DNA of 64,000 nt from a virus: UHGV virus genome UHGV-1374678. One strand, written 5' to 3'. Each line of letters opens with the position of its first letter. The stretch's first letter is position 1. Below are positions 44,703 through 61,203 of this stretch, piece after piece. The translations under genes were made by a program, and so were the position numbers. The notes below the pieces were generated by a model. That model was not told the origin of the DNA. It saw only the letters and a list, made by a program, of their open reading frames with translations, and made no database searches.

Positions 44703-46202
44703 TTATCTGATTTTTTTAAGACCAAGCTTTCTTGCTTCTTGAGTCATTCTTTTATCAATATACTCATATGCATATTCCGCCATTTTTTGTGTTCCAGGGA
44801 ATGTGTCTTTGTCAACATTTCCTTCAACATTAATCAAGCTTCCATAAGTATTTTGAATTGTCATGTTTCCAGAAGAATCTGCTTTCGTATCATTAATCAA
44901 TTTTAAAGTATTGATCATACTATCAACTAACTTATTGGCAGTAACAGAGCTATCAATTTGTGTCTTGTATTTCTGTCCACCAAACATAATGTTTCCATCT
45001 TCATCCAGATGAGCAGAAAGAGCCATTAATTTCTCTGTTTCATTATTTGGAATTACTCCATCACCACGGTGTAATTTTGTAAGCTTTGCACCATCGCTTT
45101 TTCTGACAATAATTTCTCGTTTATTGTCCTCACCAGTCCATGCAAGCTGATCTGCACCAACTCCTAATGTACCGTTTTCATAACCGCTAATCTGTGACAA
45201 GCTAACCCATCCAAGGTTCCCATAACGTCCGTCAGCAGATTTAATATGGATTTTTAAATTTCCAGTATTACGTCCAGTTCCGCCATAATCCTTGCTAGAA
45301 TAACTGTCAATTACAACACCGTTTGGAACACCAGAGTATCTGGTTCCGGCTGGATTCATTCCCCATGAATCGTAGTAATATCTACCAGTAAAGGTTACAA
45401 CATCACCTACTCGTGGGATGCCATCTCCACCAGTGCTAACAGACGGTTTCTTAGCCGGTTTAGGTGGCTCGGGTTTCTTTGTAACGGTAACGGCAATCGT
45501 TTTAGAGATGCCACTGCCATCGGTTGTCGAAACCGTTACAGTACATGATCCAGGCTTAATTGCTTTGATAGTACCGTTTGATGCGGTAGCAACAGCAGTA
45601 TTGCTTGATTTCCAAGAAAGAGTCTTGTTTTTTGCATCATTTGGTCTTATCGTTGCCTTAATTGCTGTAGATTTCCCTTCCTCAAGGGTCACAGAAGTTT
45701 TGTCTATCTTCAGTTCGGCTACCGGACGATTCTCCGTATTCTCTGGAGACATAATATCTTCTGTGATTTTGCCATTTTCAATTGCATTATCTTTAATTGG
45801 ATCTGTAATTGTGCCACTGGCAGAAGAAGAAGGGTTTTTATTTGCATCGGATTGAGATTGAGAAGCGTTGTCTTTTTGAGACTGTGCTCCTTCTTGGGAC
45901 GACATTTGATTTTGATTATTGTTAAAATCGGTGCTTCCGACCCATCCAAAATTGGATATAATAGAATTAATCTTATTATAAGCATCTTGATATTTTCCTA
46001 CAGCCTTATTAAGCATTGAATCGATTATTTCAAGCTGCTTATCTGCATTATGACTAATTTCATATTCCGTATCCTCTAACATCTGTTGGAGGTCATCAGA
46101 AAGCTTGTCGTAGCCTTCGCTCTGCATATCATTTGCATGATCACGTTTTGTGTCGGACAACTCATCTTCAGCAGATTTGAGCTGTTCCTTCAGCTTTTTC
46201 AC
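44703..46202 (-). CDS. coiled-coil / Big_2 / SH3b-like protein with no RBS; probable 3' exon continuing the tape-measure reading frame after the intron
   Basis: N-terminal coiled coil; Big_2-like domain (VTLEEGKSTAIKATIRPNDAKNKTLSWKSSNTAVATASNG...); SH3b-like GW repeats. Frame is open upstream to a TGA with no ATG and no SD. Confidence 0.5.
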   Translation of the reverse strand: MKKLKEQLKSAEDELSDTKRDHANDMQSEGYDKLSDDLQQMLEDTEYEISHNADKQLEIIDSMLNKAVGKYQDAYNKINSIISNFGWVGSTDFNNNQNQMSSQEGAQSQKDNASQSQSDANKNPSSSASGTITDPIKDNAIENGKITEDIMSPENTENRPVAELKIDKTSVTLEEGKSTAIKATIRPNDAKNKTLSWKSSNTAVATASNGTIKAIKPGSCTVTVSTTDGSGISKTIAVTVTKKPEPPKPAKKPSVSTGGDGIPRVGDVVTFTGRYYYDSWGMNPAGTRYSGVPNGVVIDSYSSKDYGGTGRNTGNLKIHIKSADGRYGNLGWVSLSQISGYENGTLGVGADQLAWTGEDNKREIIVRKSDGAKLTKLHRGDGVIPNNETEKLMALSAHLDEDGNIMFGGQKYKTQIDSSVTANKLVDSMINTLKLINDTKADSSGNMTIQNTYGSLINVEGNVDKDTFPGTQKMAEYAYEYIDKRMTQEARKLGLKKIR

Positions 46203-47672
46203 TTGTGCTTGAGCACTTAAATTATTTCACTTGTCTTTTCATCCATTCGCTACATGGATGAGAGCATATTAAATACTCCTCATACTTTCATATGAGAATG
46301 GGACTATATCTTCTATTTGAATAAAATTATTTTGAATTTTTGTTTGAAATGTTTGAGATATTTTGGACATTATAAAAGAGCAGTAGTGATTTACTGCTCT
46401 TGGATATTATATCTTTTCATTTTTAGGTTTATATGACGGACTTCGGTAAATTTCAGTTTTACTCTCAAGTTCCGTTTCAAAATGTGTGATTTTATTTAAT
46501 AACAACAATGTACTTTTTGAAGTTCCACGGGTATAATCTGTATAATACTTTTTAAAAAATGAACAACCTTTATGTTCATTTTCAAATTTAGGATAAATTC
46601 TTTCTTTAACAAGGAATAAATAGAATGTTTCTGCATCTACATATTCCAAAAGATAATCTGCAACTATTTCTGTATATTGCGTGTAAAATCGTGGATTGAT
46701 TTTATACATAACATCATTATTTTCTATAATATCTTCTAATAAATATAAATTTGCTATACGTTCTTCAACCTTGTATTGTTCATATTTTAAAGATTTTTTT
46801 AAATATTCAATTTTCAAATCTCCACTTAATATATCTTTAAATATACGTTCTCTATTTGTAGAAGAAAATTTTAAATCATCTAAATGTTGTATTCCTGCTA
46901 AATGAAAGAAGGAATCATATGGAAAGTGAAGCAATAAATTATATTCTTTTCCTTTTCTTCCAAGCTTAATTTCATATGCAACATGTCTTAATTTTGCATA
47001 TTTTACAGCCGCTTCATACAATATGTCTTGTTGCATTTTATCCCCCGTAAACACAAAAGGCTCTGTTTCAAACAGAGCCCTTTTATGTGATGTTTTCTTT
47101 CGGATCTAGCCTAGTCAGATTGTGGACGAACATCAAACCCCATAATGTCAGTATATACCACTTTTCTGACAAAGCGACATATACCATTTGACAACAGACA
47201 CTCAAGTTGCCTGTTTATAACATTGTAAGAAAGACACATATCTTTCTTAACTATATTATAGCCAATTTAAGAGAAAAATGCTACCCAAAAATACTACAAA
47301 AGTACGCATTTTTTATTATGCAAACATTCCAAAACATACGTTCTATTTTACGTGTTATATATATCTTTTCCATTATAATTTGTTTTATTCAAATAGTCTA
47401 TATTTTTCAAGTCGCCAATCGCTTGCGACCCTACATTAAGGCTTACGCCACCCATAAAGGGTTAGTCTCTGAATGTCTTCCGTATCTGTTGACTTAGGAA
47501 GTTCACTGCGTCTGGGAGACTTGCACTCCCGGTTATCCCTAACCTATTTGTTTTTTATGGTTTCTATCTTTCGACTGGTGAGTTTTAAACTCATACCGCA
47601 TTCACGCTTACCGTTTCCAGTTACGTTGTAGCAAAATAGGGTTATGGGGATGTCCCCGCAATTAAATAGATT
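46203..47672 (-). mobile_element. group I self-splicing intron (approximate bounds) with an internal ORF, between the TMP ORF and the downstream exon
   Basis: On the - strand: P-like AATTGCGGGG (47646..47663); P5 hairpin GGGGACATCCCC; Q-like GACGCAG; P6 CCTAAGTCAACAGAT (47484..47498); R-like TTCAGAGACTAA (47462..47474); GTAA-looped P8 GGCGTAAGCC; P9-like hairpin at 47411..47429. Then an ORF with its own RBS. Confidence 0.55.
46407..47054 (-). CDS. intron-encoded ORF (215 aa), unknown family; no canonical GIY-YIG, HNH or LAGLIDADG motif seen
   Basis: RBS GGGGGAT before the ATG, directly after the hairpin at 47055..47084; followed by the hairpin at 46377..46400. Confidence 0.55.
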   Translation of the reverse strand: MFTGDKMQQDILYEAAVKYAKLRHVAYEIKLGRKGKEYNLLLHFPYDSFFHLAGIQHLDDLKFSSTNRERIFKDILSGDLKIEYLKKSLKYEQYKVEERIANLYLLEDIIENNDVMYKINPRFYTQYTEIVADYLLEYVDAETFYLFLVKERIYPKFENEHKGCSFFKKYYTDYTRGTSKSTLLLLNKITHFETELESKTEIYRSPSYKPKNEKI

Positions 47673-50600
47673 TTACAGGTGCAATAATTTCACACCTTCA
47701 AGTGCTGCAATCTGAGCTTTTAGGCTGTTAATATCTTTGCTCTGATTTTTGATCTTTTTGTCATAATCGTAATATTCAGCTTTTCTCTGCAAAGCTTCCT
47801 TTCTCTTTGAGATGATTTTATCAAGATATTCAACTTCCGTTGACATTGCATTCTTGTATAAATCAATTAAGGAATCTTGGTACGATTTAACATCTTGTGT
47901 GCTGTCCTGAATACCCTTTCGATATTCTTGTGACTTTTCATTATACTCGTCTAATGAAATAACACCGTTCTGATATAACTCCTGTAACTTTTGAAGTCCA
48001 GTTGTATAATCAGATATCTTTTGTTTCGCATTTCCAAGGCTTTGGGACAGGAGAGCAATTTGTGCCAATCCATCTTCTGTAATTCCGCCTTGTTTATCAA
48101 GAAAAGCATCTTCATTAAGGAGTGCTCTAAATCCTGATAATTCGTCTTCAAGATCAGAATAACTTTGAATAGCCTTTTCTATATTTGTCATACGGAGATC
48201 ATAAATCGAATCCTTAAGATCTTCATTGTCTTTCTGAAGTTTTAGAATCTCTGTATCCGCACTGCTAATTTTATCAGCCAGCTCCTGATATCTTTTTGAA
48301 TTAACATCATAAACAGATTGCTCCTTAAGATATTGGTTTCTTAAATCATACTGTTTTTTAATATTAGCATTGTTATTATCAATTTGCTCCTGATATACAG
48401 TTTCCGGGACTTCTTTATCTTGTGCCTCCAACAAATCAACATATGAACTAAGTTTATCTACTCTACGTGAGAATCCGTCAATAATATTCTGAAGAGTATC
48501 ATAACTAATCTGTCGTAACTGATCCTGCAACTCAATTAATTCAGACGATGCTTTTGTTATATTGGTTGTAAAGTCCTGAATGTTCTTCATGGTATCATAC
48601 CATTGCTCAGAACCTTTTTTCATAAGACCGGAATTCAACTGAGAGTTTACTTCTGCTTGGTAGTCAGACAACTTCTTTGTCAAAGAATCGTAAATTTCAG
48701 ATTGTGTCTGAATCGATTTCTGTATACTGTCTGTATTTTGATGGTTATCAATTGCCGTACCGAGATTTTCAAGAAGAGTGCGGTTTTCTTTAAGACCGTC
48801 TTTTATAGACTCTTTCAGATTCTCTATTGCATCATATTCATCTTCAATAATACTAAGCCTTTTCTCTGCTAATTCTGTTAATTTATCTTCTAAAGTAAGT
48901 ACATTGTCAAGAGCAGATAGATAATTTTCATAATATGTTTTATATTTAGAAATTTTATCATTCAAATCACTGTCTTTAATTGTCTCAATATTTAATGTAC
49001 CATTACGAACTTTAGATGCATATGTCTCGCTTAATCCAACCGCATTTGCGGCATTCAAATATGCTTGGGCTGCTTGTTGGTTAGTTTTGATTTCAGACTG
49101 TACCTTGGAAATAGCATCCGCAGCTTTCACTTGCTTATTCACAAGACCAATCGCCCTGTCAATTGCATCAACTGCTAAATCAGTTATTCTCTTAACTCTT
49201 GAAAGTAAAGTTTCAATCCAATCAATAACATTTTCTGATGCGTCTTTTGATGAACTATCCGATGAGGAATTATTATTAGAAGAGGAGTTGTTATTAGAAG
49301 ATGATTTCTTTTTCTTTGAAGAAGATGTTGCTTTGCTTCCAGAACCACCAGTTCCGAAAGTAACACCGCTAGTACCACCATACCCTGCATGTGCAGTACC
49401 ATGTGCCAAAGCCGTTCCTCGTGAATTAATAAATCCAGAAGAAAGCAGTTGCTTTGTTTGATTTGCATCAAACACAATAGAACCTTGTGGAATACGTGTA
49501 AATTCAGCACCATTGTCACCAACGGTTCGCCATTTACCATTCTTAGGATCAACAACAATTTCTTGTCCTAGTTCACCAACTAAAGAGCCTTCAGATTTTT
49601 TTGTTCTCCAACTAGATTTTAACCAACTTGTATCAGATATATTGCCATTTGCGTAAGCACTTCCGTACATTCTTGGATTGATTGTTCCAAATGTATGTGC
49701 AGTACCAGAAGCACTTGAAGCTCCTTTTTTTACTGCGGATGCAACTTTACTTGCTACATTGGTTTGAGGCATATTTACAGTTGAAGCATAGTATGTGACT
49801 TTTCCTGTTAATGTTGGTGCGGAATTAGGGAATAAAGCCTTTGTATAATTGGCAAGACCATTAATTGTAGGTGCTATCTTAGGATGGTCGCCCATTTCAT
49901 AACTAACTGTACCATCTTCATTTTTTACTTCATCAAGATAATAATTAACACCATCAACATTTGCGATATAAGCAATTTCTCCACTTTCTGTTTTGACAGC
50001 TTCAATCTGAGTTGGTACATTATCGACGTTTGCCGTAAAATATAATTCTTGTCCCGTTTTTAACTGATTGAGCTGTGCTTGAACTTGATCTGTTGTAGCA
50101 TCAACTTTCATATAAATTGTGTTATCATCTGGACGAGATAAAATACCATCAATTTTTGCATCCGCTTCTGTAGTATCAACGTCAACCTTGATCAGCCCCA
50201 TATCTGATAATACATCAACAAATTCATTTAAATACGACGGGTCAATATTCATAGATTGCATTAATGTACTTAATGAATCTTCCATTGCAGAAGTCTGGTT
50301 ATCTGTCAAATCAATTGACTTCAATTGTTGTTCAGAATAATCCTTAAGAGAACTAAGAGATGCTTTTTGTGCTTCGTCCCCAAGATAAAATTGATCCTGT
50401 ACAAGATGTAGGGCTTCAGCATATCTATTGGCTTGCTCTACAGAATCTTCTCCATAATAAGTTCTTATTTTAAGACCGTCAGTATCTTCTCCACCATTTA
50501 AAAGTTCTTGTGCATAACTTTTTAATTCTTCCGGGCTATACACATCTCCATTTGGTAAAATAGGAGTTACGACAATTGTTTTATCCCCTGCTTCATTTGA

Positions 50601-53600
50601 GAATCCACTTGTATACACAGTTGCAGTAGAATCTTCTGGAACGTCCCAACCGACATCGTTCATATACTTACCAGAAACTTCAGGTCTATTTGTTAAATCA
50701 ACATTTCCTCTTTCTGTAGTTACTTCAACCGTTGCTTTTTTACCTTCTGTTTTATTGATGGCATTATCAACAGTTGAGTCAAATTTAGATGTATCTGCAT
50801 CAACCGTCATAGTTCCAGAAGTATTGTCAACTTTCTCTTTAGTTTCTTGAGTCTTCTGATCTACCTCTGTTGTATCGGCTTTGTAATGATAGATTCCATC
50901 AAAACTTTTATAAAGTTCTACCTTTTTCCCGTCTTCAAATTCTGCATAGTAATGAATTTCACCATCGATTCTTTGTCCCGAAATTACAGATGACTTAGTT
51001 GTTGTTTTCCCGTTCTCGTCAGTAAATTGAACATCGCCATTAAAAGTAATAGTCTGTCCCTCTTTTAGATTGTCTATTTGTGCTTGGATCTGAGAGAAAT
51101 CTGCATCCGCTTTCATGACAATTAATAAATCATCTGAATATGCAACACCCATCAAATCATTTAATGCTTGTTGCTTTTCAATCTCAAGAGTTGCAATTAT
51201 CTCTGGATCCATATTCTCAATAGTGCTCAGAACACTTTCTTGACTAGACGGATCAATCCCAAGGTCAGTCAGCATCTGTGGGTCTGCATTTTTAATGGTT
51301 TCGTATAAAGTCTTAACTTTATTCTCCGCATCTGTAGTATCAATGTCTATCCCAACGCCTTTTAATGTTTTTTGTCTTTCAAGTTCGTATTTAGCCTGAG
51401 AAAATTCTTTAAGGCTATTTAAAAGATTTGCAGAATCGTTCTTGAGATTTGCAAAATTAACTCCACTATATTTACTTTCGGTAAGAGACTGTTTTTGAGC
51501 ATATAATGCATTAATAGAATTGATCATTGCCTGAGAAGAGCTGTCATTAAATGACTTTCCTTTACCGTTGAGCTTTTGGTTACTTAACAACGCTTTTTGA
51601 ACAAGGGCAATTTGATCGTCAAGATTTTGTTGATTTGTTGAATCAAAATTGATTGTTGCGTCATTAATTCCATGTGTTTTTGCATAGCCCATAGAATATT
51701 TATTAACCAAATTTTGTGTTGTTCTAATAGTTTTTTGTGCTTGCTCTTTAAGTTCATCGGCATTATTTAAGTCCACATCGATACCAATGACTTTATTCGA
51801 TATTTTATCAAGTTCTTCTTCTGCATTTACAATATTTAAATTAGCATCTAGCTCGATACCATTCTCATTTGCAATTTTCTGAATCTCTGTTTCGAGTGCT
51901 TTTGCAACTTCGTCTGTGTCTGTTCCATACGCTTTGGTAGATTTAATTCTATCTCTTTCAGTAAGCAGGGTAGTAATCTGTTCTTTTCCTTGTTTAATCT
52001 TTTCAGCATACTCATCTGCGGAGTGTTTTGCTAACTGTTCTGTAGCAGAGCGTGTTTCTGCTAAATCATTCTGTAATGCAGCGATTTCATTTTTCTTTTG
52101 TGTAATAGCTGTGTTGTCAGCACCAGTGGCTTGCAACTCAGCTAACTCAGCCTGTGCCTTTGCAATTTTCGAAGATAAGTCTGTAATTCTTTCAGCACCG
52201 TCAGCTACAGATCCAACAAAATTATTATGAGCACCATAATCTTCCAATCTGCCAAACATGTCCATGAACCAATCAAAGCTCATACCCATATCTTTAGCAG
52301 CGTCAGTTATGTCTCCAATGTTGTATGTCCATTGTTTACTTCCATCAGCGAGTGCTTGAGAAGCTGCGTATCCCTTTTTCTCTAAATCTGTTAAGAAATT
52401 CTGAACCCCTGTTGCATCTTCTGTCATATATCTTGCTGCTTTGTTATAATTTTCTGCAAAATTTACAGCATCATCAGCACCAGTAGGAGAGAAGTATGCA
52501 GCCCTGGTCTTAAAATCATCTGTGCCAATAAGACCTTTATCAAAGGCTTCTTTTGCTTCTGTCAGATATGTAACACCTTTTACATAATCGTCCCCAGCAT
52601 TTGCGGATTCGTCAGCAGCATCAATTGCAGAAAAGGCACTGTTGTCTTTTAAGTCAATGGCAGTAGCTCCGGCTGCAATCGTATCTTCTATTTTCTTCTT
52701 AAGCTTATCAAAATCATAGCCAACTTCGTCCGCATTGTCACTCATGACAATATCATATGCGGTATTTATCTCTTTGATATTGAGATCGTTTATAGCGTCT
52801 CCAAACTTTTCTTTTAAGACTTTTGTTTTGTCAGAAACTTCTTCTGTCAATTGATCTAACCCGAATATTGTCTTGAAAGAATTTTGTGCCTCCTTATCAT
52901 TCGGGAAGGCATCATCTAAAGCCTTGCTTATTGCGTATTTATAATTTTCAAGATGTAGATTGTCAGGATTGATATTTAATAAATCAGCAATTTTTTCTTG
53001 AGCTTCTGGTTTAAGATCATTCATTGGCTCTATAAACTCAGAATATATGAAACTTGTAATATCTCCATCATAATCATCCATGATAGTATCGATATCAAAG
53101 TCAAAGTCACCAAAATTAGTTGTGAATGCATTTTGTAATTTGGAATCCAAAGATGTAAATTCTGTTGAAGTTTGTAAATATTTCGATACAGAATCACTCA
53201 AAGATTTAAACTGTTCTTTTATTAAAGAATTCTTCTCTTGAACTTTTTTCTTATCTTCGTTAATTTGTTGAGTAAGCTTTTCTTCAGAATTAATTTTGCT
53301 CTCCTCTAACACTTTACTGAGTTCCTTCGCAGTATCTTTGTTCATTGGAGTGGAATAGGTTAATAACCCTGTTTTTTCAGAGTATGTTGACGCAGGAGTC
53401 AAACCGTGTTTCTTTAATACTTTAAGTAGGTCGTTACCTTTAACAAGTGTTGGATCAAAAGAAACCGATTGTTTCTTAAAAATATTTTTATCATTAGCTC
53501 TTTCTGAAATTGCTTTTATTGCATTTTCTTTTTTTTCTATTGAATTTTCAAGATCTGTTCTATCATTAGAATATACTTTAATTTGTTCTTTAATTCCATC

Positions 53601-54248
53601 AAATGCATCTTGCAAATCTTCTCCAATTTTAATATGGGAAGAGTTTAAAGAAGCGTCATACAATTCGTTTAAAGATTTTGCAGCAGTGGCTGCATTGTTT
53701 CCAATATTTAAAATTGCATTTCCCTGTGCGTCATAACCTGCAACTATTTCCGGGAATACATTAGCTAATTGATTCGACGTATCAATATAAGATTGATAAT
53801 CTTCATCGCTTAACAACTTGTTAGAATTATCTGAGTTTACGCCTTCTTTTAATTCGGCATACTTTTTAGCAACTTCATCAATTGCATCCCCAGTGCTTTT
53901 TATTTCTTCTGGATTTTTTGCAAAACTTTTCCCAAGATTTTCTATAGAATTTTTATTTTCAGAAAAAGTCTTGAAAGTAGAGTCAATGGAAGCCTTTGCC
54001 TCCTCTCCTTTTTCAATTAGTTTTTCTGACCGATGAATATAATCATCAATTAATTCTATTCCTTTAGTTATTATAGCGGAAGCAGCCATGCTAATTCCAA
54101 AACTTGCGATTGAAGAGACAAAAGTTCCTGCAAAATTTTTCACGCCAGTTTTTAATTTTGACATGGTAGAAGAAAATTTGCTTTGAGAACTTGTTGCTTC
54201 TTCTGTAGCAACTTGAAATTCACTATAACTGATTTTCCCTTCTTTCAA
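47673..54248 (-). CDS. tail tape measure protein, main part (2191 aa, TTG start; frame open a further 92 codons upstream)
   Basis: Long coiled coil; hydrophobic segment FAGTFVSSIASFGISMAASAII; S/N low-complexity run; sits upstream of Dit and Tal. Confidence 0.8.
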   Translation of the reverse strand: MKEGKISYSEFQVATEEATSSQSKFSSTMSKLKTGVKNFAGTFVSSIASFGISMAASAIITKGIELIDDYIHRSEKLIEKGEEAKASIDSTFKTFSENKNSIENLGKSFAKNPEEIKSTGDAIDEVAKKYAELKEGVNSDNSNKLLSDEDYQSYIDTSNQLANVFPEIVAGYDAQGNAILNIGNNAATAAKSLNELYDASLNSSHIKIGEDLQDAFDGIKEQIKVYSNDRTDLENSIEKKENAIKAISERANDKNIFKKQSVSFDPTLVKGNDLLKVLKKHGLTPASTYSEKTGLLTYSTPMNKDTAKELSKVLEESKINSEEKLTQQINEDKKKVQEKNSLIKEQFKSLSDSVSKYLQTSTEFTSLDSKLQNAFTTNFGDFDFDIDTIMDDYDGDITSFIYSEFIEPMNDLKPEAQEKIADLLNINPDNLHLENYKYAISKALDDAFPNDKEAQNSFKTIFGLDQLTEEVSDKTKVLKEKFGDAINDLNIKEINTAYDIVMSDNADEVGYDFDKLKKKIEDTIAAGATAIDLKDNSAFSAIDAADESANAGDDYVKGVTYLTEAKEAFDKGLIGTDDFKTRAAYFSPTGADDAVNFAENYNKAARYMTEDATGVQNFLTDLEKKGYAASQALADGSKQWTYNIGDITDAAKDMGMSFDWFMDMFGRLEDYGAHNNFVGSVADGAERITDLSSKIAKAQAELAELQATGADNTAITQKKNEIAALQNDLAETRSATEQLAKHSADEYAEKIKQGKEQITTLLTERDRIKSTKAYGTDTDEVAKALETEIQKIANENGIELDANLNIVNAEEELDKISNKVIGIDVDLNNADELKEQAQKTIRTTQNLVNKYSMGYAKTHGINDATINFDSTNQQNLDDQIALVQKALLSNQKLNGKGKSFNDSSSQAMINSINALYAQKQSLTESKYSGVNFANLKNDSANLLNSLKEFSQAKYELERQKTLKGVGIDIDTTDAENKVKTLYETIKNADPQMLTDLGIDPSSQESVLSTIENMDPEIIATLEIEKQQALNDLMGVAYSDDLLIVMKADADFSQIQAQIDNLKEGQTITFNGDVQFTDENGKTTTKSSVISGQRIDGEIHYYAEFEDGKKVELYKSFDGIYHYKADTTEVDQKTQETKEKVDNTSGTMTVDADTSKFDSTVDNAINKTEGKKATVEVTTERGNVDLTNRPEVSGKYMNDVGWDVPEDSTATVYTSGFSNEAGDKTIVVTPILPNGDVYSPEELKSYAQELLNGGEDTDGLKIRTYYGEDSVEQANRYAEALHLVQDQFYLGDEAQKASLSSLKDYSEQQLKSIDLTDNQTSAMEDSLSTLMQSMNIDPSYLNEFVDVLSDMGLIKVDVDTTEADAKIDGILSRPDDNTIYMKVDATTDQVQAQLNQLKTGQELYFTANVDNVPTQIEAVKTESGEIAYIANVDGVNYYLDEVKNEDGTVSYEMGDHPKIAPTINGLANYTKALFPNSAPTLTGKVTYYASTVNMPQTNVASKVASAVKKGASSASGTAHTFGTINPRMYGSAYANGNISDTSWLKSSWRTKKSEGSLVGELGQEIVVDPKNGKWRTVGDNGAEFTRIPQGSIVFDANQTKQLLSSGFINSRGTALAHGTAHAGYGGTSGVTFGTGGSGSKATSSSKKKKSSSNNNSSSNNNSSSDSSSKDASENVIDWIETLLSRVKRITDLAVDAIDRAIGLVNKQVKAADAISKVQSEIKTNQQAAQAYLNAANAVGLSETYASKVRNGTLNIETIKDSDLNDKISKYKTYYENYLSALDNVLTLEDKLTELAEKRLSIIEDEYDAIENLKESIKDGLKENRTLLENLGTAIDNHQNTDSIQKSIQTQSEIYDSLTKKLSDYQAEVNSQLNSGLMKKGSEQWYDTMKNIQDFTTNITKASSELIELQDQLRQISYDTLQNIIDGFSRRVDKLSSYVDLLEAQDKEVPETVYQEQIDNNNANIKKQYDLRNQYLKEQSVYDVNSKRYQELADKISSADTEILKLQKDNEDLKDSIYDLRMTNIEKAIQSYSDLEDELSGFRALLNEDAFLDKQGGITEDGLAQIALLSQSLGNAKQKISDYTTGLQKLQELYQNGVISLDEYNEKSQEYRKGIQDSTQDVKSYQDSLIDLYKNAMSTEVEYLDKIISKRKEALQRKAEYYDYDKKIKNQSKDINSLKAQIAALEGVKLLHL

Positions 54249-54494
54249 TGCCTTTGCCGAATCGACAAGCTTTTTATCAACATCCCCAAGCGATTTTCCA
54301 AGCGCTGCCGTTGTAATATTAAGTGGTTTTTGTTGTAAGTTTTCTAGATTTGTTCCGCCTTCTGTTACAGAAGAAATTAATTTGCCAAAACTGCGATTTG
54401 CTTTTATTTGGTTTTCAGATTTTGGCGTAAATAAATTAGAAAAAATAGAACTAAAACCGTTTTCTTTGTCATAGCTTAAAATCGTTTTTTTAAT

Positions 54495-54523
54495 TGATAT
54501 AATTATATTACTTGCAATAATAT
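54495..54523 (+). promoter_or_regulatory. sigma70-like promoter for the island gene 54549..55004
   Basis: TTGATA - 17 nt - TAATAT, 25 nt upstream of the ATG. Confidence 0.4.
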
Positions 54524-54548
54524 ATTATTTGAAAATGGAGGAGAGTTT

Positions 54549-55004
54549 ATGAATATCAAATACTGTCCAGAATGTGCGAAATGTAAAAAATCAATAGAAG
54601 ATCCTGAAGATTTTTATGCTGGATATCAAGTCTATTTTTTTCAAGATAAAATTGGGAAAACATGTCAAATTTGTAACAAGGATACGTTAATAGAAACAAA
54701 CATAACTGAAGATGAGCTTCATGAAATAGGAGAAGCGTCAAACTATAATCCTTCTTTTCTCAAAGCCATGCGTGAACTCAAAGAAAAAGACATCATAGAA
54801 TATGAACTTAAAATGTCACAGTTCCGGTCACAAGTCGAACAGAAAAACAAAGCAAGAGAAGAAGCAAATCGTCCGAGGTGTCCGAAGTGTGGTTCTACCT
54901 CAATTGCAACGACAACTCGTGGTTACTCATTTTGGACAGGATTTGTCGGCTCTGGTAAACCAATGAACGTGTGTCAAAATTGTGGTCATAAGTGGAAGAT
55001 ATAA
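54549..55004 (+). CDS. double zinc-ribbon protein (N-terminal CPEC..C..C, C-terminal CPKCG...CQNCGHKW)
   Basis: RBS TGGAGGAGAGTTT ATG; the 3' end is the source of the 42-nt repeats. Confidence 0.6.
54954..54995 (+). repeat. repeat copy 1 (native 3' end of the zinc-ribbon gene)
   Basis: GGTAAACCAATGAACGTGTGTCAAAATTGTGGTCATAAGTGG. Confidence 0.55.
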
Positions 55005-55305
55005 CACGAATATTTTATCCAAAGCACAAATACGCTCTTGTTTTTTTGCTAACTGCTTTTGATAAATATAAGTTTTCTTCATAAAAATATCACCTACTTT
55101 AAAAATATTTATTTTTAGAACGTTTGCAACATTTGTTCCTGTGTTCATTTTCAAGAACCTTACACCTACGGTTGTATTCTTTAACATAAGAAGCAGGGAT
55201 ATAGTTTGTATCTTCTATTGGCTTGCTTAATTCTACCATATAACCTATTAACATTTTTTCAATATTACAAATAAAGACCATCTCCTTTAAGAAAGTGTGA
55301 TATGT

Positions 55306-56061
55306 ATGGATAAAAATATATTAAAAATCTACGGATTAACTGGTGCGTATTGTAAATTTATGGGAATTACTAAAATGCCAAAATTTAAAGTAAAAACATT
55401 TAAAGGTGGAAATGCATCTGCGTATATTTCCTATCAAAATAATTCTCAAATATTTAATATAGAAGAAAACTATATTAATGTTTTAAAACAAAACGCACTA
55501 CCTCTTATTTATCATGAATTTACTCACATTGTAGATAACGAAAGTTTTCTTCCAGAAGTGAGTGCAAAAACAAAAATTCCATTCATAAAAATGTTATCGG
55601 AATATAGAGCTATTCAAGTTCAAATGAAAATAAGCATGAATTTTGAAATCTATAATGAAGATAAAAAGTTTTCATTTGATGATAAAACACATGATTGGTT
55701 TGAAGAAAAAACCGTAAAAGAAGATATAGTATATAAAACTGAAGATTTTGTTGCAACGATAAAAAATCTTTTAAGTAAAAAAGAAAATAATTATACTTAT
55801 TTTTTAGTTCTACATTGTGTGTATTACCAGAGCATGTGTGATTTTTGGAAAGAATATTGTATTAATGAAGTTCAACATCTATTAAAAGAAGATATAATAA
55901 ATACTTTATTTGGATTAGAATTTGATATTTTCCATCATATGTTATCAAAAATAGATAACAAAGATATAAATTATTTTAAATTACTGTTATCATCTCAGAA
56001 TAAAATGGTCGGATATTTTGGATTATATGAAGACGAAATCATAAAAACATTAAGCGTATAG
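55306..56061 (+). CDS. HExxH-motif protein (putative ImmA/IrrE-like or other zinc metallopeptidase)
   Basis: LIYHEFTHIVDN; start ATG at 55306 inside track ORF 55297..56061. Confidence 0.55.
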   Translation: MDKNILKIYGLTGAYCKFMGITKMPKFKVKTFKGGNASAYISYQNNSQIFNIEENYINVLKQNALPLIYHEFTHIVDNESFLPEVSAKTKIPFIKMLSEYRAIQVQMKISMNFEIYNEDKKFSFDDKTHDWFEEKTVKEDIVYKTEDFVATIKNLLSKKENNYTYFLVLHCVYYQSMCDFWKEYCINEVQHLLKEDIINTLFGLEFDIFHHMLSKIDNKDINYFKLLLSSQNKMVGYFGLYEDEIIKTLSV

Positions 56062-56151
56062 AAATAAATTATTCTTAATGTACAGCGAAAAGTGATATCT
56101 GTCGGGAAGAAGATCAAAGGATCTATATTGTTTGGTTTATTCAGCAACGAT

Positions 56152-56193
56152 GCTAAAAAACAAATGAGATGCAAGGATTGTGGATATAAATTT
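56152..56193 (+). repeat. repeat copy 2 (remnant zinc-ribbon 3' end, ...MRCKDCGYKF*)
   Basis: GCTAAAAAACAAATGAGATGCAAGGATTGTGGATATAAATTT; same frame as the upstream gene after two stops. Confidence 0.55.
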
Positions 56194-56334
56194 TAATCAA
56201 ATAAATGTGCAATCGTATAGCAAAATAATTTTATCCTTAAAAGTAAAATTGACATTCTTTTCTTTTTTACTTCTTTTGAGTAAACATAATTATCTTTCAA
56301 AATAAAATCACCTACGCTTTCTGGAGGAATGAAT

Positions 56335-56496
56335 ATGACAAACGAAAATAACAAAAGTATAAAGCAAACTACAGCAGATAAAAACAAGCAAAAAGATACT
56401 CGTAAACCATTACCGAAAGCTAATATAATTGGTAAACGCTTAGAGATATTTAACATGGATTTAAATGTTATATACAAGAAGAATAAGAAAAAATAG
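56335..56496 (+). CDS. small basic protein (53 aa)
   Basis: Strong RBS CTGGAGGAATGAAT ATG; below the ORF-track size cutoff. Confidence 0.5.
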   Translation: MTNENNKSIKQTTADKNKQKDTRKPLPKANIIGKRLEIFNMDLNVIYKKNKKK

Positions 56497-56692
56497 CATT
56501 TTACTTAGTTTTTTATACTTTTGGTTTCTTTCCATGCAGCAAATGCCATTCTACATTTTTTGAATTCTTGATCTGCAATTTTGTCTTGTTTTTTATTAAA
56601 ATCATCACATATTTTTTGCTGCTTAAAGGAAAGACAGAATATTTCTTGTCGCATTCCTATAATATGTGCTTTTGGCAAAGGAGATTTTTTTA

Positions 56693-57223
56693 ATGAGTTC
56701 ATATAACGATATCCTTTCTTTTGAAAATGACTACTACAAAGAATTATATTACGATGGTGCAAAACAGAGAGATAGGATAAATAGTAAATTTACACCAACA
56801 ATAACATTATTAACTGCTGAAACATCTGGAATCATTTGGATTATCTTCAATTTAGTGAAGAAGATGAAGTCGTTTAATTTTATATCAATTACAGCAACAA
56901 TAATCTTGTGTTTTATAATTTTATTTGGGTTAGTAGCTCTTGTGAATTTTTTATTTTGTTTTTTAAAATATGGCTTTCTATATCCAAAACCAGCCGATGT
57001 GAAAAATTTTATTAAAGAAAATAAAACATATATTGGTGAATATACAGAAAAAGAGATTGTTGATAATATTGTAGAACAAATTTCTTCTGAATATATTACA
57101 ATGGCAATTAAAAATAATAAAGAAATAAATAACAGGTCAAAATATCTGAACAAGTGTTACATAGGAATTGTGTACACGTTGTTATTTATGATTATTGAAT
57201 TCCTAATATTATTATTTATGTAA
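56693..57223 (+). CDS. three-TM membrane protein (candidate abortive-infection / exclusion effector)
   Basis: RBS AAAGGAGATTTTTTTA ATG; TM helices IIWIIFNLV, ISITATIILCFIILFGLVALVNFLF, IGIVYTLLFMIIEFLILLF. Confidence 0.6.
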   Translation: MSSYNDILSFENDYYKELYYDGAKQRDRINSKFTPTITLLTAETSGIIWIIFNLVKKMKSFNFISITATIILCFIILFGLVALVNFLFCFLKYGFLYPKPADVKNFIKENKTYIGEYTEKEIVDNIVEQISSEYITMAIKNNKEINNRSKYLNKCYIGIVYTLLFMIIEFLILLFM

Positions 57224-57261
57224 AAGTATAATAAAATATAATTGTTTTATTAAGTAAGAAC

Positions 57262-57304
57262 GCTAAAAACAAAATTTGAACGTAAGGATTGTGGATATAA
57301 GTGG
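57262..57304 (+). repeat. repeat copy 3 (remnant zinc-ribbon 3' end, ...ERKDCGYKW*)
   Basis: GCTAAAAACAAAATTTGAACGTAAGGATTGTGGATATAAGTGG; 15/18 identical to copy 1 across the Cys-codon core. Confidence 0.55.
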
Positions 57305-57328
57305 TAGGAGAACATGGATGTTTTTGAA

Positions 57329-57541
57329 CTACCGATCATACAAACTAATTAAAACTTTTCCAAGTTCAAGAGCAATGGCTTCATCAAAGTCTTCTGCGAT
57401 TAATTTTGCTAATTCACATGTTGGATGACACAAAACAAAATCTTCATCATCCGATAATTTGCTTTTACCAGTTTTTGGAGCAAGTTCGTTCCAATAATAA
57501 CTAATAAATTTACCTGTTTTCGAATGATCCATATCATTCAC
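57329..57541 (-). CDS. small acidic protein (GTG start), divergent from 57567..58031
   Basis: 70 aa; weak RBS; only 25 nt from the divergent gene. Confidence 0.35.
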   Translation of the reverse strand: MNDMDHSKTGKFISYYWNELAPKTGKSKLSDDEDFVLCHPTCELAKLIAEDFDEAIALELGKVLISLYDR

Positions 57542-57566
57542 CTGCCTTTCAAAAAATGGAGAAATT

Positions 57567-58031
57567 ATGAGATTAAATCACGATTATATTAGAAACATTC
57601 TTCTTTTTATAGAAGAGAACTTAAATTATAAAGAATATACTGATATGCCATCATATCATAAAACACCTTCTTTTGCAGAAGTATTATCTGATGAGTATTT
57701 TGTGGACTACAACCAAGAAGAACTTTTGTATGCAATGGAACTTCTAATACGAGAGAAGTATATTCAATGTACAAAAGAGCCATATTTTGTAAATGGTAGT
57801 CTTATGAGCGCAGACATTGTTGGATTGACATGGAACGGATATCAATTTCTTGATAATGTAAGAAACGATACTGTTTGGAATGCAGTAAAAGAAAAAGCAA
57901 AACAATATGGTCAATTTTCAATCAAGACATTAGCATCCGCAGCAGGTTCTTTATCTGTAGCTTTAATGAACGATACAAACGCTATTCAGAATTTTTTACA
58001 AGGTGTTGGTAATATAGTTAAAATTATTTGA
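57567..58031 (+). CDS. DUF2513-like (YjcQ-like) winged-helix protein
   Basis: N-terminal MRLNHDYIRNILLFIEEN; internal DIVGLTWNGYQFLDNVRNDTVW; RBS TGGAGAAATT ATG. Confidence 0.5.
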   Translation: MRLNHDYIRNILLFIEENLNYKEYTDMPSYHKTPSFAEVLSDEYFVDYNQEELLYAMELLIREKYIQCTKEPYFVNGSLMSADIVGLTWNGYQFLDNVRNDTVWNAVKEKAKQYGQFSIKTLASAAGSLSVALMNDTNAIQNFLQGVGNIVKII

Positions 58032-58150
58032 AGTGACTTTACTATTGAAACTAATAATGTAATTACTGAAATAATCATTGACAAGTTTTGGTATTTTTCT
58101 GAAAGCTTCAATAGTGGCATAAAAATTTTATCATTAATAAAATCAGACAT
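57986..58150 (-). CDS. small single-TM protein (54 aa from the internal ATG)
   Basis: RBS GAGGTAATAAC ATG; TM segment LSMIISVITLLVSIVKSLQIILTIL; overlaps the 3' end of the convergent + gene. Confidence 0.35.
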   Translation of the reverse strand: MSDFINDKIFMPLLKLSEKYQNLSMIISVITLLVSIVKSLQIILTILPTPCKKF

Positions 58151-58212
58151 GTTATTACCTCGAAACAAAAGAATGGCATTGTAATAGCTGTGGAAGTGAC
58201 TTTTAAATCAAT

Positions 58213-58238
58213 AAAAGACACCGATTAAGGTGTCTTTT
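58213..58238. terminator. bidirectional rho-independent terminator
   Basis: AAAAGACACC-GATTAA-GGTGTCTTTT with T runs on both strands. Confidence 0.6.
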
Positions 58239-58241
58239 AAT

Positions 58242-59255
58242 TTAATTAGAATATATAGATAACGGTGCAACAATACTACTTACTTTTGATTCTAATACAA
58301 CATTACTTTCTATTACTGCATCTTCAGTTGTCACATCTAATAAGTGTGGTTGACTCATCGTTTTAATCACTTCTATAACATCAAGTATTGGAAATTTTGA
58401 TCTTGAAACTAATTCTTTACAAACCAAACGATCCAAAGGAGAACATAAATTGATTTCCTTTGGCATATTCCCATTTGCGTTGATAAATTGTTTTACAATA
58501 TTCCAACCTTCATAGAAAATCTCCATAAAAGATTCGTCATATGGAACTGGACATACAATTAAATTTTTTGTTTCATGTTGATAAATTTTATCGGATTTCC
58601 CTTGAGCAGAAGGAACTATCCCAAGTCTTAAACCTCTTGCACCTTCTAATTGCTTTGGATTTATTTTAACAGTTGTACCAACCCATTTGTCTACATCTGT
58701 ATTTCCAACAAATAAATCTGCTTTCCATAAACCATTTATGCTACTAGGAAGTTTTTCTCTCTCTTTTGGTTTTCTGAACGATGAAACAACTCCGTTTATA
58801 TGTCTTTTTAATTTTATTGGCTTCCCTTTTTTACCTGTTAACAATATAGAATCATCAGTCAGATGTTCTTTTACACTGTCAATAAACTGTATTGTATTTG
58901 CTTCTTTTTCTACGCCAAACAAAATAGAAGATGGATCGTTCCCTTTTATGTTGCAGAATTTTGAAAGTGCAGAATCTATTCTGTTCAAAACATTTGGATC
59001 TTTTGATATGATTGCATCATGTACCGCATATTCAAAACAAATTCCACAATCTCCATCACCAGGACTGTATAATCTTGTAAATAATTCAAGTGTTATTTTG
59101 TCGTATCCACCGATCTGGTTTATTATGTCTTGTTTTATAGTATGCACCAAACCAGTTAAAATAGGATGAATAACAGAGAATAATGCTTCGTATTCAGAAT
59201 TAACTGCATTTGTTTGAATGCATTTTATTTTTTTAATCATTTTTATTCTCTCCAT
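58242..59255 (-). CDS. 337-aa protein of unknown family (candidate defence / nuclease-like), divergent from the XRE regulator
   Basis: No recognised motif; alone between terminators. Confidence 0.6.
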   Translation of the reverse strand: MERIKMIKKIKCIQTNAVNSEYEALFSVIHPILTGLVHTIKQDIINQIGGYDKITLELFTRLYSPGDGDCGICFEYAVHDAIISKDPNVLNRIDSALSKFCNIKGNDPSSILFGVEKEANTIQFIDSVKEHLTDDSILLTGKKGKPIKLKRHINGVVSSFRKPKEREKLPSSINGLWKADLFVGNTDVDKWVGTTVKINPKQLEGARGLRLGIVPSAQGKSDKIYQHETKNLIVCPVPYDESFMEIFYEGWNIVKQFINANGNMPKEINLCSPLDRLVCKELVSRSKFPILDVIEVIKTMSQPHLLDVTTEDAVIESNVVLESKVSSIVAPLSIYSN

Positions 59256-59355
59256 TTATTTTCTCCTTTTATTATACGACACAATATGACAAAGTACAAT
59301 TCAAAACATATGTTCTAATATATGCTAACAAGTACAAAAGCATCAGATTTTATAT

Positions 59356-59384
59356 TTGACCCAATTCCATTTTCTTCCTATAAT
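59356..59384 (+). promoter_or_regulatory. near-consensus sigma70 promoter (TTGACC-17-TATAAT) for the XRE gene
   Basis: Read directly from the sequence; 38 nt upstream of ATG 59422. Confidence 0.5.
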
Positions 59385-59421
59385 AATACACATCATCTTT
59401 TTTACTCGGAGGGTGCAATAC

Positions 59422-59628
59422 ATGAATTATTTTTCAGAAAACCTTTTATATTATAGGAAGAAACGTGGAATGACACAAAATGATATTGCCAGAAAAGTAT
59501 TTGTTAAGCATCAGACAATCTCAAATTATGAAAAGAACACAAGAACCTGTGATTTGAACACACTTGTTTTACTTTCCAATGCTCTTGATATCACACTGGA
59601 TGAATTGATTAAAAATCCACATCCATAA
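59422..59628 (+). CDS. XRE-family HTH transcriptional regulator
   Basis: GMTQNDIARKVFVKHQTISNYEKN...; RBS GGAGGGTGCAATAC ATG. Confidence 0.7.
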   Translation: MNYFSENLLYYRKKRGMTQNDIARKVFVKHQTISNYEKNTRTCDLNTLVLLSNALDITLDELIKNPHP

Positions 59629-59642
59629 TACTTAGTTGTATG

Positions 59643-59822
59643 TAGGAATACCAACAAACACAAGACCTTTTACATTATGAGCATCTATACTTTTACCTGC
59701 TTCTTCATAACTTGTGAATTTTGTTTCCGATACAACCTTGTGATCAAATTTACCTTCTGTATTTTTCGTTACCTGAATTCCAATGACATCTACACCTATA
59801 TTTTTCATCATATCTTTCCTCC
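59643..59822 (-). CDS. small protein (59 aa), co-transcribed downstream of the - strand XRE gene
   Basis: RBS GGAGGAAAGAT ATG placed 4 nt after the HTH gene stop; below the ORF-track size cutoff. Confidence 0.5.
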
Positions 59823-59826
59823 ACTC

Positions 59827-60030
59827 TCAGAGTTTGAATATATCTTCAACAGACACACCAAGAGCATGGGCAAGTTTGATAGCTGTATAAACATGTGGGT
59901 TTTCAAGAGGATTATTTTCTATCAAACTTATTGTAGAATGTGACACATTGCTTTTCATAGCAAGTTGTGTTTGTGACCAATCTTTTTCCCATCTTAATTC
60001 CTGCAATCTGTTACGCATATATTCACACAC
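59827..60030 (-). CDS. XRE-family HTH transcriptional regulator (Cro/cI-like)
   Basis: LRWEKDWSQTQLAMKSNVSHSTISLIENN... Confidence 0.7.
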   Translation of the reverse strand: MCEYMRNRLQELRWEKDWSQTQLAMKSNVSHSTISLIENNPLENPHVYTAIKLAHALGVSVEDIFKL

Positions 60031-60151
60031 CCTTTTATTTTTAGTATGTGTAAATTGAAGCTTCTTCTTTACAAGAAAATAATACCAATAATTTTTGCAT
60101 AGAAGTAGAACAGTTTTTTATGGAAATTACGTAACTTTTTCTATATTCAGT

Positions 60152-60173
60152 TATATACTATATATAGTATATA
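60152..60173. promoter_or_regulatory. perfect 22-bp palindrome TATATACTATATATAGTATATA (operator candidate)
   Basis: Lies in the divergent intergenic region upstream of the - strand XRE gene. Confidence 0.5.
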
Positions 60174-60275
60174 CATTTTCAGATGTGTATGAACTAATGT
60201 TCTGTATTTACCATTTTTAGTGAAAATGATATAATATTTTCTGATAGATAGTTATGATGCAAACCTGTACCATCA

Positions 60276-60617
60276 TTGTATGCGCGCACTATCCATCAAA
60301 AAAACAGGGAGTACCAGTGTAAGACTGATACGGTTCGAAAAATTAAAGAGTGTCTAAAATTCAGGGTGTTCTGCCCATTTTATTCCCTCGTAATTAACAT
60401 TCTTACAGAAGGGAGGGTAGAGTTGAATTTACTAGAATTAATAGTAAACAACTTAGACATTAGTATAATTGCAGCTTGCGTAATGTATTTCATTCACGAA
60501 GCTTTCAAATTTGCAAGTGTTATTGTGATTTCCAAGTCCGATAATCTTACAGATAAGAAAGCTCAAGCAATTGCAAAGATAATGTCATTTAGATTCGACT
60601 TTCGAATCAAAAAATAA
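60276..60617 (+). CDS. small membrane protein; likely true start at TTG 60423 after RBS GGGAGGG (65 aa)
   Basis: TM segment ISIIAACVMYFIHEAFKFASVIVI; the 5' 140 nt of the track ORF looks like a structured leader. Confidence 0.4.
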   Translation: MYARTIHQKNREYQCKTDTVRKIKECLKFRVFCPFYSLVINILTEGRVELNLLELIVNNLDISIIAACVMYFIHEAFKFASVIVISKSDNLTDKKAQAIAKIMSFRFDFRIKK

Positions 60618-61203
60618 TTTCTGAATTTTGTCATTTTTCATTTTTAATTTTTCCTTTAATTCAATTATGCTCCGTGGAGTCCATATCTTCACGGAGTTCT
60701 TTATATTATATTCTCCAATAGGAGATAATATTTGTTTTATGTTTTTTATACTCATTAAGTTTTTGCAAGTCATCAATGAGTTTGTGTGATTTGTGTCAAT
60801 AGGGTAGTAGTAGACTACTTGCATATCCCCTACGACTTCCACAGGCTTTCCCCGTGGTCACGGACTGTATGTTTGAACCAATAGTACAATTACGCCTGTA
60901 CTACGTCATGCCTTGTCAGCCTCTCGCACGATACATGAAACCACACTTTCATTTTTATTGTAACGTGTCGGGACTACCGTTTTCGTATTTCTACTTATTT
61001 CTTCGTGAACATAAGATTTAATCTTACGCTTTTATTGCATCACTCCGATACCATATTTGTATGGCTTACGGCTTCCCCCGAAATTCGGCATATTTTGATT
61101 TTAGTTAAATCAAGGTGGATAGAAGATATGTATGTTCATATTACTTCATATTCTCTCTACGTTAAACATATGGCATTGTTATATGTCCTTATAGAAATAG
61201 GCA

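Follow-up and report, generated by a model that had tools for sequence, protein, structure and literature searches.

The window analysed here is the whole 64,000-nucleotide (nt) stretch of the virus genome UHGV-1374678, in which a gene for the tail tape-measure protein is interrupted by a group I intron. The intron occupies 47691..46228 (1464 nt) and interrupts a valine codon (GU|A). The loop of its P8 helix holds a copy of the structured RNA motif drum and, downstream of it, a gene for a predicted RNase of the PBECR4 family. Coordinates are positions of the window, and the tape-measure gene, the intron and everything within it lie on the minus strand.

The 5' exon of the tape-measure gene (47692..54248) matched phrog_4211, 'tail length tape measure protein' (E = 1.8e-13), in an alignment that begins at profile position 969. 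As listed by the gene-finding program, this upstream open reading frame (ORF) has 2191 codons (54248..47673) and runs to a stop codon (47675-47673) that lies inside the intron. The 3' exon (44703..46227; 507 codons and a stop) is listed as an ORF of its own (46202..44703), starting from the GTG at 46202; its product has the same coiled-coil character as that of the upstream ORF, followed by a Big_2 domain. The next gene downstream encodes a DUF6558 phage tail protein. Joining the two exons gave a coding sequence of 6557 + 1525 = 8082 nt, that is, 2693 codons with zero internal stops.

The end of the 5' exon was set by alleles that lack the intron. We retrieved 94 related proteins with a segment spanning the junction, and nearly all were one-sided, covering either the exon-1 part (~66%) or the exon-2 part (~32%). 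Three of the 94 (P0003, P0006 and P0020) had no intron and were continuous over the site, where they read ALEG(V/S)N(N/D)(L/T)A..KKL. Gene-neighbourhood look-ups and BLAST yielded five further lineages of the intron; one of them, L005, has uninterrupted DNA at the window's site (..AALESVNNLSAQSQKKKL..), with the length of the predicted spliced product. Only one solution satisfies the rules that the exon ends in U, that the intron ends in G and that the product matches the intronless alleles in length. It puts the last base of exon 1 at 47692 and the first base of exon 2 at 46227, with the intron (47691..46228) between them. A 3' splice site at 46216 was also considered; it made the product 4 amino acids (aa) shorter than the intronless homologues and was replaced by 46228. 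Across the junction the predicted product reads ...AALEGV|NNLSAQAQVKKL..., or in an extended reading ...AALEGV|NNLSAQAQVKKLKEQ.

An earlier note, made from the sequence alone, had proposed that a group I intron with an internal ORF splits a single tape-measure gene, and this proposal was borne out by the intronless alleles, by covariation among six introns and by a guide that tracks the exon. The same note placed the 5' splice site in the last codons of the apparent tape-measure ORF, in agreement with an exon end at 47692 and a stop at 47675-47673. Its intron end of 46203 had to be moved to 46228, 25 nt further upstream in the transcript. If the intron were not spliced, translation would end six codons into it, and the Ig-domain C-terminal fifth of the protein would be lost. 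Splicing would yield the ligated RNA GAAGGUGU-AAAUAAUUUAAG and a fused protein containing the peptide ...IAALEGVNNLSAQAQVK....

Structure and covariation of the intron

The intron starts with GAAAUUAUUGCACCU and ends with ..ACAAGUG, and its catalytic core is found in two halves: P1 to the 5' strand of P8 (47697–47383), and the 3' strands of P8 and P7 followed by P9 to P9.2 and omegaG (46326–46228). In P1 (47677..47697), AGGUGU of the exon (47697-47692) is complementary to the guide GCACCU (47682-47677), and in P10 the P1 loop AAAUUAUU (47690-47683) is complementary to AAUAAUUU of exon 2 (46226-46219). During splicing the guide would pair with the last six exon bases, with the U47692.G47682 wobble at the 5' splice site, and P10 would hold exon 2. 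A repeat finder recovered the complementarity between guide and 3' end blind, as the long-range inverted repeat I4.

The 5' core half (47383..47670) begins with P3 (UCUAU 47670-47666 / AUAGA 47401-47397). P4 pairs UUGCG (47661-47657, within AATTGCGGG at 47663-47655) with CGCAG (47510-47506, within AGACGCAG at 47513-47506) and encloses a P5 domain of ~146 nt; it is followed by P6 (CTTCC 47501-47497 / GGAAG 47481-47477) and the 5' strand of P7 (GACUA 47467-47463, within TCAGAGACTAA at 47472-47462). These elements of P4, P6 and P7 had been located correctly in the earlier note, which also likened a 15-mer to the P6 region of the Tetrahymena LSU intron; the two may be identical. Three extra hairpins, a subgroup IA feature, separate P7 from the P3 3' strand (47461-47411): two small ones (CCC/GGG, 47461-47451; GGC/GCC, 47449-47440) and P7.2 (GUCGC 47429-47425 / GCGAC 47415-47411), which shows compensatory changes in 3 of its 5 pairs. 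One of the small hairpins, GGCGTAAGCC, had previously been taken for a GNRA-looped P8, and P7.2 (GTCGC-N9-GCGAC) for P9.

P8 itself is a perfect 14-bp stem (CUAUUUGAAUAAAA 47396-47383 / UUUUAUUCAAAUAG 46326-46313; inverted repeat I2) that closes a loop of 1056 nt (46327..47382) and co-varies in relatives. After it come J8/7 (AAGAUA, 46312-46307) and the 3' strand of P7 (UAGUC, 46306-46302), which together form AAGATATAGTCC (46312-46301), then P9 (46296-46279) with a GAAA loop, P9.1 (46278-46262), P9.2 (46260-46240) with the invariant loop GUAGCGA, and omegaG (46228), which precedes exon 2 and is the terminal G in all six introns. The sequence GAAGAUAUAGUCC in this half agrees with the J8/7-P7 consensus of the Rfam family RF00028, and the GAAA-capped hairpin comes next. 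Exact copies of the R and S elements are present a single time each in the 64-kb window, which, with the covariation of the helices in relatives, speaks against a chance resemblance. Because the two strands of P7 (47467-47463 / 46306-46302) are 1.1 kb apart, the core is split and not compact. That is, the core was wrongly described as complete within ~250 nt, since everything from the 3' strand of P8 to omegaG lies 1.06 kb downstream, after the ORF.

The intron belongs to the phage IA type of group I introns. The hairpins added between P7 and the P3 3' strand, the adjoining of P3 and P8, and the series GUAGGGUC...GAC..GAAA..AUAGAC correspond to the layout of the IA2 introns of T4 td and Twort, and IA2 is the putative subgroup. 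A 33-nt block of the P5 domain (47631-47599, the CAACGUAACUGGAAACGGUAAGCGUGAAUGCGG region) was identical to the recA-gene intron of the Staphylococcus phages Romulus and Remus, for which an intron endonuclease is annotated. The same block occurs with 100% identity in ~45 Staphylococcus Twort-like phage genomes and in near-identical form in Serratia and Pseudomonas EL-like jumbo phages, and related blocks occur in Listeria phages. Most of these occurrences fall in unannotated gaps of the phage records, where they are probably unannotated introns. In the phage collection, DNA similarity revealed no relative of the window beyond such short blocks of the intron core, and a search with the spliced tape-measure segment found no relative, with one match at 26% identity.

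We measured covariation on an alignment of six related introns (A6) in which the P5 domain and the P8 loop of every member were each replaced by GAAA before alignment. With the structure drawn by hand, 98.5% of 324 cells were paired, and 19 of the 55 pairs, distributed over 10 helices, had changed on both sides. None of 500 shuffles matched these values, and slid partners were paired in 33-47% of cells with 0-3 such pairs. RNAalifold, run on A6, independently returned P4, P6, the long-range P7, P7.2, P8, P9, P9.1 and P9.2. The compensatory changes in the core helices were seen across lineages that are 75-85% identical. An alignment of the uncut introns by MAFFT (A5) misaligned the members with a short P5; in A6 the P1 columns were still out of register and were compared by hand.

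The introns of L025 and L028 were 80-84% identical to the window intron in the core, and those of L041 and L051 were more compact, with a much shorter P5 domain. All four are inserted in the same codon as in the window (GU|A of the Val in ALEGVN). The intron of L005-L011 shared 77% identity with that of the window over its whole length, cargo included, and sits at a different site ~1.25 kb upstream in the gene. In the window this second site is intact: residues 1749-1806 of the spliced protein align there at 66% identity without a gap, which confirms the L005 junction reciprocally. The exon/guide pairs of P1 were AGGUGU/GCACCU in the window, AGGGGU/GCUCCU in L025, GGGGU/GCCCU in L041 and UCGGU/GCCGA in L051; at the second site, L005 has AACGGU/GCCGUU, and 10 of 11 positions of its P10 are paired. 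Thus guide and exon change together in each of five lineages, and they do so at two insertion sites; the reading frame is kept across all six related introns. Intronless alleles, covarying helices and a guide that follows its exon together establish the group I intron on comparative grounds, with high confidence, and its splicing is predicted.

Farther upstream, the tape-measure region is arranged differently. Its PhageMin_Tail domain is encoded by a separate ORF of 836 aa (61204-63714, minus strand), after which come a 337-aa ORF, an island of plus-strand ORFs of ~4 kb and then the main ORF of 2185 codons (region 54248-63714). The island includes a DUF2513 gene (57567-58031) and a gene for a Zn-ribbon/HTH protein (54549-55004). 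A permissive Rfam scan of 54000-61500 found no further intron between the PhageMin_Tail ORF and the main tape-measure ORF. In the relative L004 (2690-3050, 3730-4686) the island has the same layout; a drum–PBECR4 cassette, here free-standing, is flanked by genes of the opposite strand (Spo0A_C, DUF2513), and a compact, ORF-less group I-like element (AATTGCTGG .. TCAGAGACTAC .. AATGTATAGTCC) lies directly 3' of the PhageMin_Tail ORF. Two more S-like elements were seen in L003 (580-590, 1525-1535). There seem to be several introns in the tape-measure regions of this phage group.

Cargo of the P8 loop

Within the P8 loop, a portable drum–PBECR4 cassette (46360..47304) was 76% identical by blastn to free-standing copies in L002-L004. 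Those copies are not in an intron, and the flanks of the one in L004 are non-intron sequence. The drum RNA (RF02958; 47085..47193) scored 51.8 bits against a gathering threshold of 43 and covered the full model (1-112). Downstream of it is an intrinsic terminator (47049..47083; inverted repeat I6), consisting of a hairpin (47079-47059) and then UUUUGUGUUU, and directly after the terminator is a ribosome-binding site (RBS), GGGGGA (47046-47041). The PBECR4 ORF (46407..47036) encodes 209 aa from the ATG at 47036. The program's ORF list has 215 aa from a GTG at 47054, and the homologues start at the MQQDILY position. A second, terminator-like hairpin stands after the ORF (46374..46400; AGAGCAG, a 10-nt loop, CUGCUCU, UUUU; inverted repeat I5) and is kept in L005, L004 and L028. 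The earlier note had already pointed out the ORF, its RBS and the hairpins on either side, and all of these are present, but the ORF lies in the P8 loop between the core halves and not after the core.

The ORF product matched Pfam PF18813, PBECR4, with E = 6.6e-19 and 69.4 bits (cut-off 27), and in the alignment H51, H57, R33, R70, E69 and S165 mark positions at which His, Arg, Glu or Ser/Thr is invariant. Domains of the PBECR type occur in phages and are predicted to be endoRNases that act independently of metal ions (PMC5512222). PBECR4 was the only Pfam assignment of the intron ORF, which belongs to no known family of homing endonucleases (LAGLIDADG, GIY-YIG, HNH, His-Cys, PD-(D/E)XK, EDxHD), and there is no other ORF of at least 50 aa on the intron strand.

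Upstream of the Rfam boundary of drum, the window and L005 share a conserved TATAAT (47260-47255), and a hairpin of 7 bp (AAGAAAG..CUUUCUU, 47248-47227) shows a compensatory change in L005. On account of these two conserved features, the drum transcript may be longer than the Rfam model. A promoter scan of the P8 loop found no enrichment (11 sites, against 8.3 ± 2.9 in shuffles). Just outside the ends of the cassette, still within the P8 loop, is a 13-nt inverted repeat (I7; 47333-47321 / 46355-46343; 92% complementary). It is not conserved in L005 and we therefore leave it without interpretation; it may be due to chance or be a lineage-specific extension of P8.

The pairing of drum with PBECR4 extended well beyond the window. 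In six of six metagenome loci, drum lay 30-190 nt upstream of the PBECR4 homologue and on the same strand. In the GTDB records it was upstream of PBECR4 in 11 of 14 loci, the other three showing BLAST similarity at that place, and the same was seen in L035 and L036. A search with an RNA-only drum pattern gave 121 metagenome loci, 94 of which were followed immediately, on the same strand, by a PBECR4-like ORF; 6 were truncated, and most of the other 21 resembled false positives of the pattern. The gap of 58-76 nt between drum and PBECR4 contained a GC-rich hairpin, a U-run and then an RBS in 10 of the 10 distinct gaps examined. Intron elements flanked none of the 121 metagenome loci and only one of the 14 GTDB loci, L011, which has the L005-type intron. 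The cassette is therefore usually free-standing and outside introns. Hosts named in the GTDB records were mostly Lachnospiraceae (Bariatricus, Blautia, Robinsoniella), and L011 comes from a metagenome-assembled genome of Bariatricus. IMG/VR contained no relative of PBECR4 and one match to the drum pattern, and the phage collection contained no relative of PBECR4.

When drum was described in 2017, a Rho-independent terminator and a 'compelling association' with one nearby protein were reported (PMC5737381). No paper naming PBECR4 together with drum was found in the literature searched. The 2017 study also remarked on a possible relation of DUF3800 genes to the drum-associated genes (PMC5737381). 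In L035 (1058-1918) and L037 (507-1367) we observed a DUF3800 gene that precedes drum–PBECR4 by ~700-900 nt and has the same orientation.

Other members of the intron lineage carried different genes in the P8 loop. In L041 and L051 the cargo was a treble-clef/PD-(D/E)XK-like protein of 423-427 aa with a PHROG match to 'HNH endonuclease'/'homing endonuclease' (phrog_559, E = 7e-46). In L025 it was an NYN-domain protein (L025 4160-4771; phrog_7929) that matched HEC-09, a candidate defence protein in PADLOC (E = 7e-18); no known RNA motif was found beside it. The L028 intron held a phrog_8049 ORF. Since the sister introns hold different cargo at the same position, comparison of the sequences marks the P8 loop as an exchangeable cargo bay. 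Because a homing endonuclease occupies P8 in part of the lineage, the window intron carries something else in its place, and the homing gene appears to have been replaced.

Elsewhere, at the start of the window, Rfam gave matches to FuFi-1 (285-457, minus strand, 66.7 bits) and RAGATH-27 (1291-1374, plus strand, 85.1 bits), and there are two tRNA genes on the plus strand (2485-2567 and 2727-2796).

Function of the cassette and rival explanations

The best overall explanation of the locus, and one we consider likely, is a group I intron with predicted splicing in the tape-measure gene that carries a drum–PBECR4 cassette in its P8 loop. From the sequences we infer that the intron would splice itself, that PBECR4 would act as an RNase and that drum would have a role in its action. 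As a tentative proposal, to which we give somewhat less than an even chance, drum would be made in excess as a separately terminated RNA and PBECR4 only through read-through of the terminator. Drum would then be an obligatory partner of PBECR4, acting either as an antitoxin-like RNA inhibitor or as a cofactor, and the pair would be a phage conflict or addiction module riding in the intron.

Several observations weigh against this account. RF00028 had no match in the window at its gathering threshold (50 bits). A permissive Rfam scan of 45900-48000 recovered the two core halves, at 14.7 bits (47701-47373) and 26.2 bits (E = 4e-4; 46403-46279); apart from these it listed only drum, so that no second ribozyme (GIR1, lariat-capping) was found. 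The earlier note had named the lack of a significant covariance-model hit as grounds for abandoning the intron, and at the gathering level there was none. The scores stay low because the model cannot span the 1-kb P8 loop that splits the core, and the sister intron of L025 likewise scored below 50 (22.4 and 29.1 bits). The covariation counts come from only six distinct sequences, which we cut and aligned ourselves and from which the structure was also drawn. PBECR4 had no match in PADLOC or PHROG, and the drum region (47050-47310) has no tandem repeats, unlike known RNA antitoxins. Drum is always in the position of a 5' leader, which fits cis-regulation equally well. Finally, the intron lacks a homing endonuclease and yet occurs at two sites, which it may have reached by reverse splicing or with help from the endonuclease of sister introns.

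The position of drum is the ground for the strongest rival, in which drum would be a cis-acting leader, sensing a ligand, a protein or an RNA, that controls read-through into PBECR4, and the cassette would be a tightly regulated RNase gene. In all evaluable cases, the 94 loci among them, drum immediately precedes the gene on its own strand, and a strong terminator placed 5-15 nt behind drum and reaching to the RBS is a classical attenuation layout. Against this, a hand check in the window found neither overlap nor alternative pairing between the closing helices of drum and the 5' arm of the terminator, and the long, perfect terminator stem favours efficient release of a stable small RNA. The discoverers of drum, moreover, judged motifs of its group improbable riboswitches and reported that the associated gene occurs on either side and in either orientation (PMC5737381). 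We regard a leader function as a serious rival, though less likely than not.

A stronger form of the conflict-module proposal is that drum–PBECR4 is an RNA-neutralised or RNA-cofactored toxin module that displaced the homing endonuclease, and that the intron persists and spreads by addiction or by the advantage its cargo gives and not by DNA homing. We hold this to be unlikely, with perhaps a chance in its favour a little smaller than that of the leader.

The cassette could instead serve the mobility of the intron, with PBECR4 and drum forming a homing nuclease of an unusual kind, perhaps assisted by RNA, that would cleave alleles lacking the intron and take over from the homing endonuclease it replaced. 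It does occupy the slot that an HNH-type homing endonuclease fills in sister introns, the intron is present with the same cargo and a retargeted guide at two sites of the gene, and IStrons with TnpB and omegaRNA are a precedent (bioRxiv 10.1101/2023.11.20.567912). Two results make an RNA-guided homing role improbable. The cassette is normally outside introns, with none of the 121 other drum loci and no GTDB locus but L011 bracketed by intron elements, and the drum RNAs of the window and L005 differ by scattered, mostly compensatory changes, with no block that tracks the target sites. In addition, enzymes of the BECR fold are RNases and not DNases (PMC5512222). A mobility device is accordingly very doubtful.

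Nor do we favour, and we give slightly less credence still to, a dead, non-splicing remnant or an intergenic mobile insertion between two separately expressed ORFs. In its favour are the missing gathering-level Rfam match, the two separate genes reported by gene callers in dozens of relatives, the possible GTG start of the downstream ORF at 46202 and, farther upstream, the true split of the tape-measure region by a gene island on the opposite strand. Decay would not retain the helices, the guide match and the frame, but every core helix is maintained by compensatory changes, the guide follows changes in the exon, the frame is kept in all six introns, and intronless relatives encode one continuous protein over the site.

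The arrangement in the earlier note had the core complete in ~250 nt just past the stop codon and the ORF beyond P9, in a 3' extension. It is refuted for practical purposes by the split RF00028 matches, the pair counts and RNAalifold. Intron ORFs at the 3' end do exist, as in the T4 sunY/nrdD intron, and the P3-P7 5' elements do cluster at 47670-47463. But the stretch before the ORF has no 3' strand of P7, and a UAGUC partner that fits the J8/7 consensus occurs at 46312-46301 only; the covarying P8 pairs 47396-47383 with 46326-46313; and the hairpins labelled P8 and P9 come after P7 and before the P3 3' strand.

Comparison with known systems and significance

Phage IA introns, namely those of T4 td, Twort, the Silviavirus recA gene and the SPO1 DNA polymerase gene, have in common with the window intron the core order P1-P3-P4-P5-P6-P7-(extra hairpins)-P3'-P8-P7'-P9, the J8/7-P7 motif AAGAUAUAGUC, a loop ORF with its own RBS and a stop soon after the 5' splice site. 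Those introns interrupt genes of DNA metabolism, whereas the host gene here is structural, and the cargo in the window is a small RNA gene and a predicted RNase with their own terminators in place of a homing endonuclease. The sister introns (L041-L060, L025-L034, L028) share the insertion point, a 3' half that is ~80% identical, homologous P7.2, P3' and P8, and the habit of carrying cargo in the P8 loop. They differ in the cargo itself, which is an HNH-type homing endonuclease, an NYN/HEC-09-like protein or the phrog_8049 product.

A group I intron in a tape-measure gene had been thought unusual, but such introns were described in 2008 at three sites of this gene in prophages of the Bacillus cereus group (Tourasse and Kolstø 2008, PMC2504315), and the host gene is thus not novel. 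There too the tape-measure gene is very long and has several insertion sites, three there and at least two here. The present clade, in contrast, belongs to phages of gut Lachnospiraceae, and drum–PBECR4 cargo was not described in the earlier cases. The novelty lies in the cargo of the intron: the ORF encodes a predicted RNase and not a homing endonuclease, and drum precedes it. In the literature searched, we saw no report of drum, PBECR4 or an NYN/HEC-09-like gene as cargo of a group I intron.

The drum copy of the window, which exceeds the gathering threshold, agrees with the published motif (RF02958; Weinberg et al. 2017, PMC5737381) in having a terminator and a nearby protein family; it differs in its place inside the loop of a group I intron, and its partner is here identified as PBECR4. 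Type III toxin-antitoxin systems of the ToxIN type have the same order of RNA gene, intrinsic terminator and endoRNase gene under one promoter, and are likewise borne by phages and mobile elements. Drum, however, is a single structured RNA and not a set of tandem repeats, so the cassette is not a member of type III, and PBECR4 is unrelated to toxins of the ToxN family. In IStrons, group I introns fused to an IS605-family element with TnpB and omegaRNA, the intron likewise carries genes for a structured RNA and a nuclease (bioRxiv 10.1101/2023.11.20.567912). The window intron differs from them in that it has no TnpA or TnpB (Pfam found PBECR4 only), its cargo is in P8 and not fused at the 3' end, and there is no sign of a guide segment.

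In this group of gut Lachnospiraceae phages, annotation routinely and wrongly divides the tape-measure gene into two. Because most of the 94 relatives cover only one side of the junction, the annotated length of the tape-measure protein, and the tail length inferred from it, will be wrong unless the intron is removed. Drum, an orphan 'sophisticated' RNA motif since 2017, gains a fixed position, upstream of a PBECR4 predicted RNase with a terminator between the two. One intron lineage that carries four cargoes in P8 at one codon, and that has reached a second site with a retargeted guide and without a homing endonuclease, offers a natural series for the study of cargo swapping and mobility. If the proposed conflict module is real, the loops of group I introns would be exchangeable carriers of phage defence and counter-defence genes, and the NYN/HEC-09-like cargo of a sister intron points the same way.

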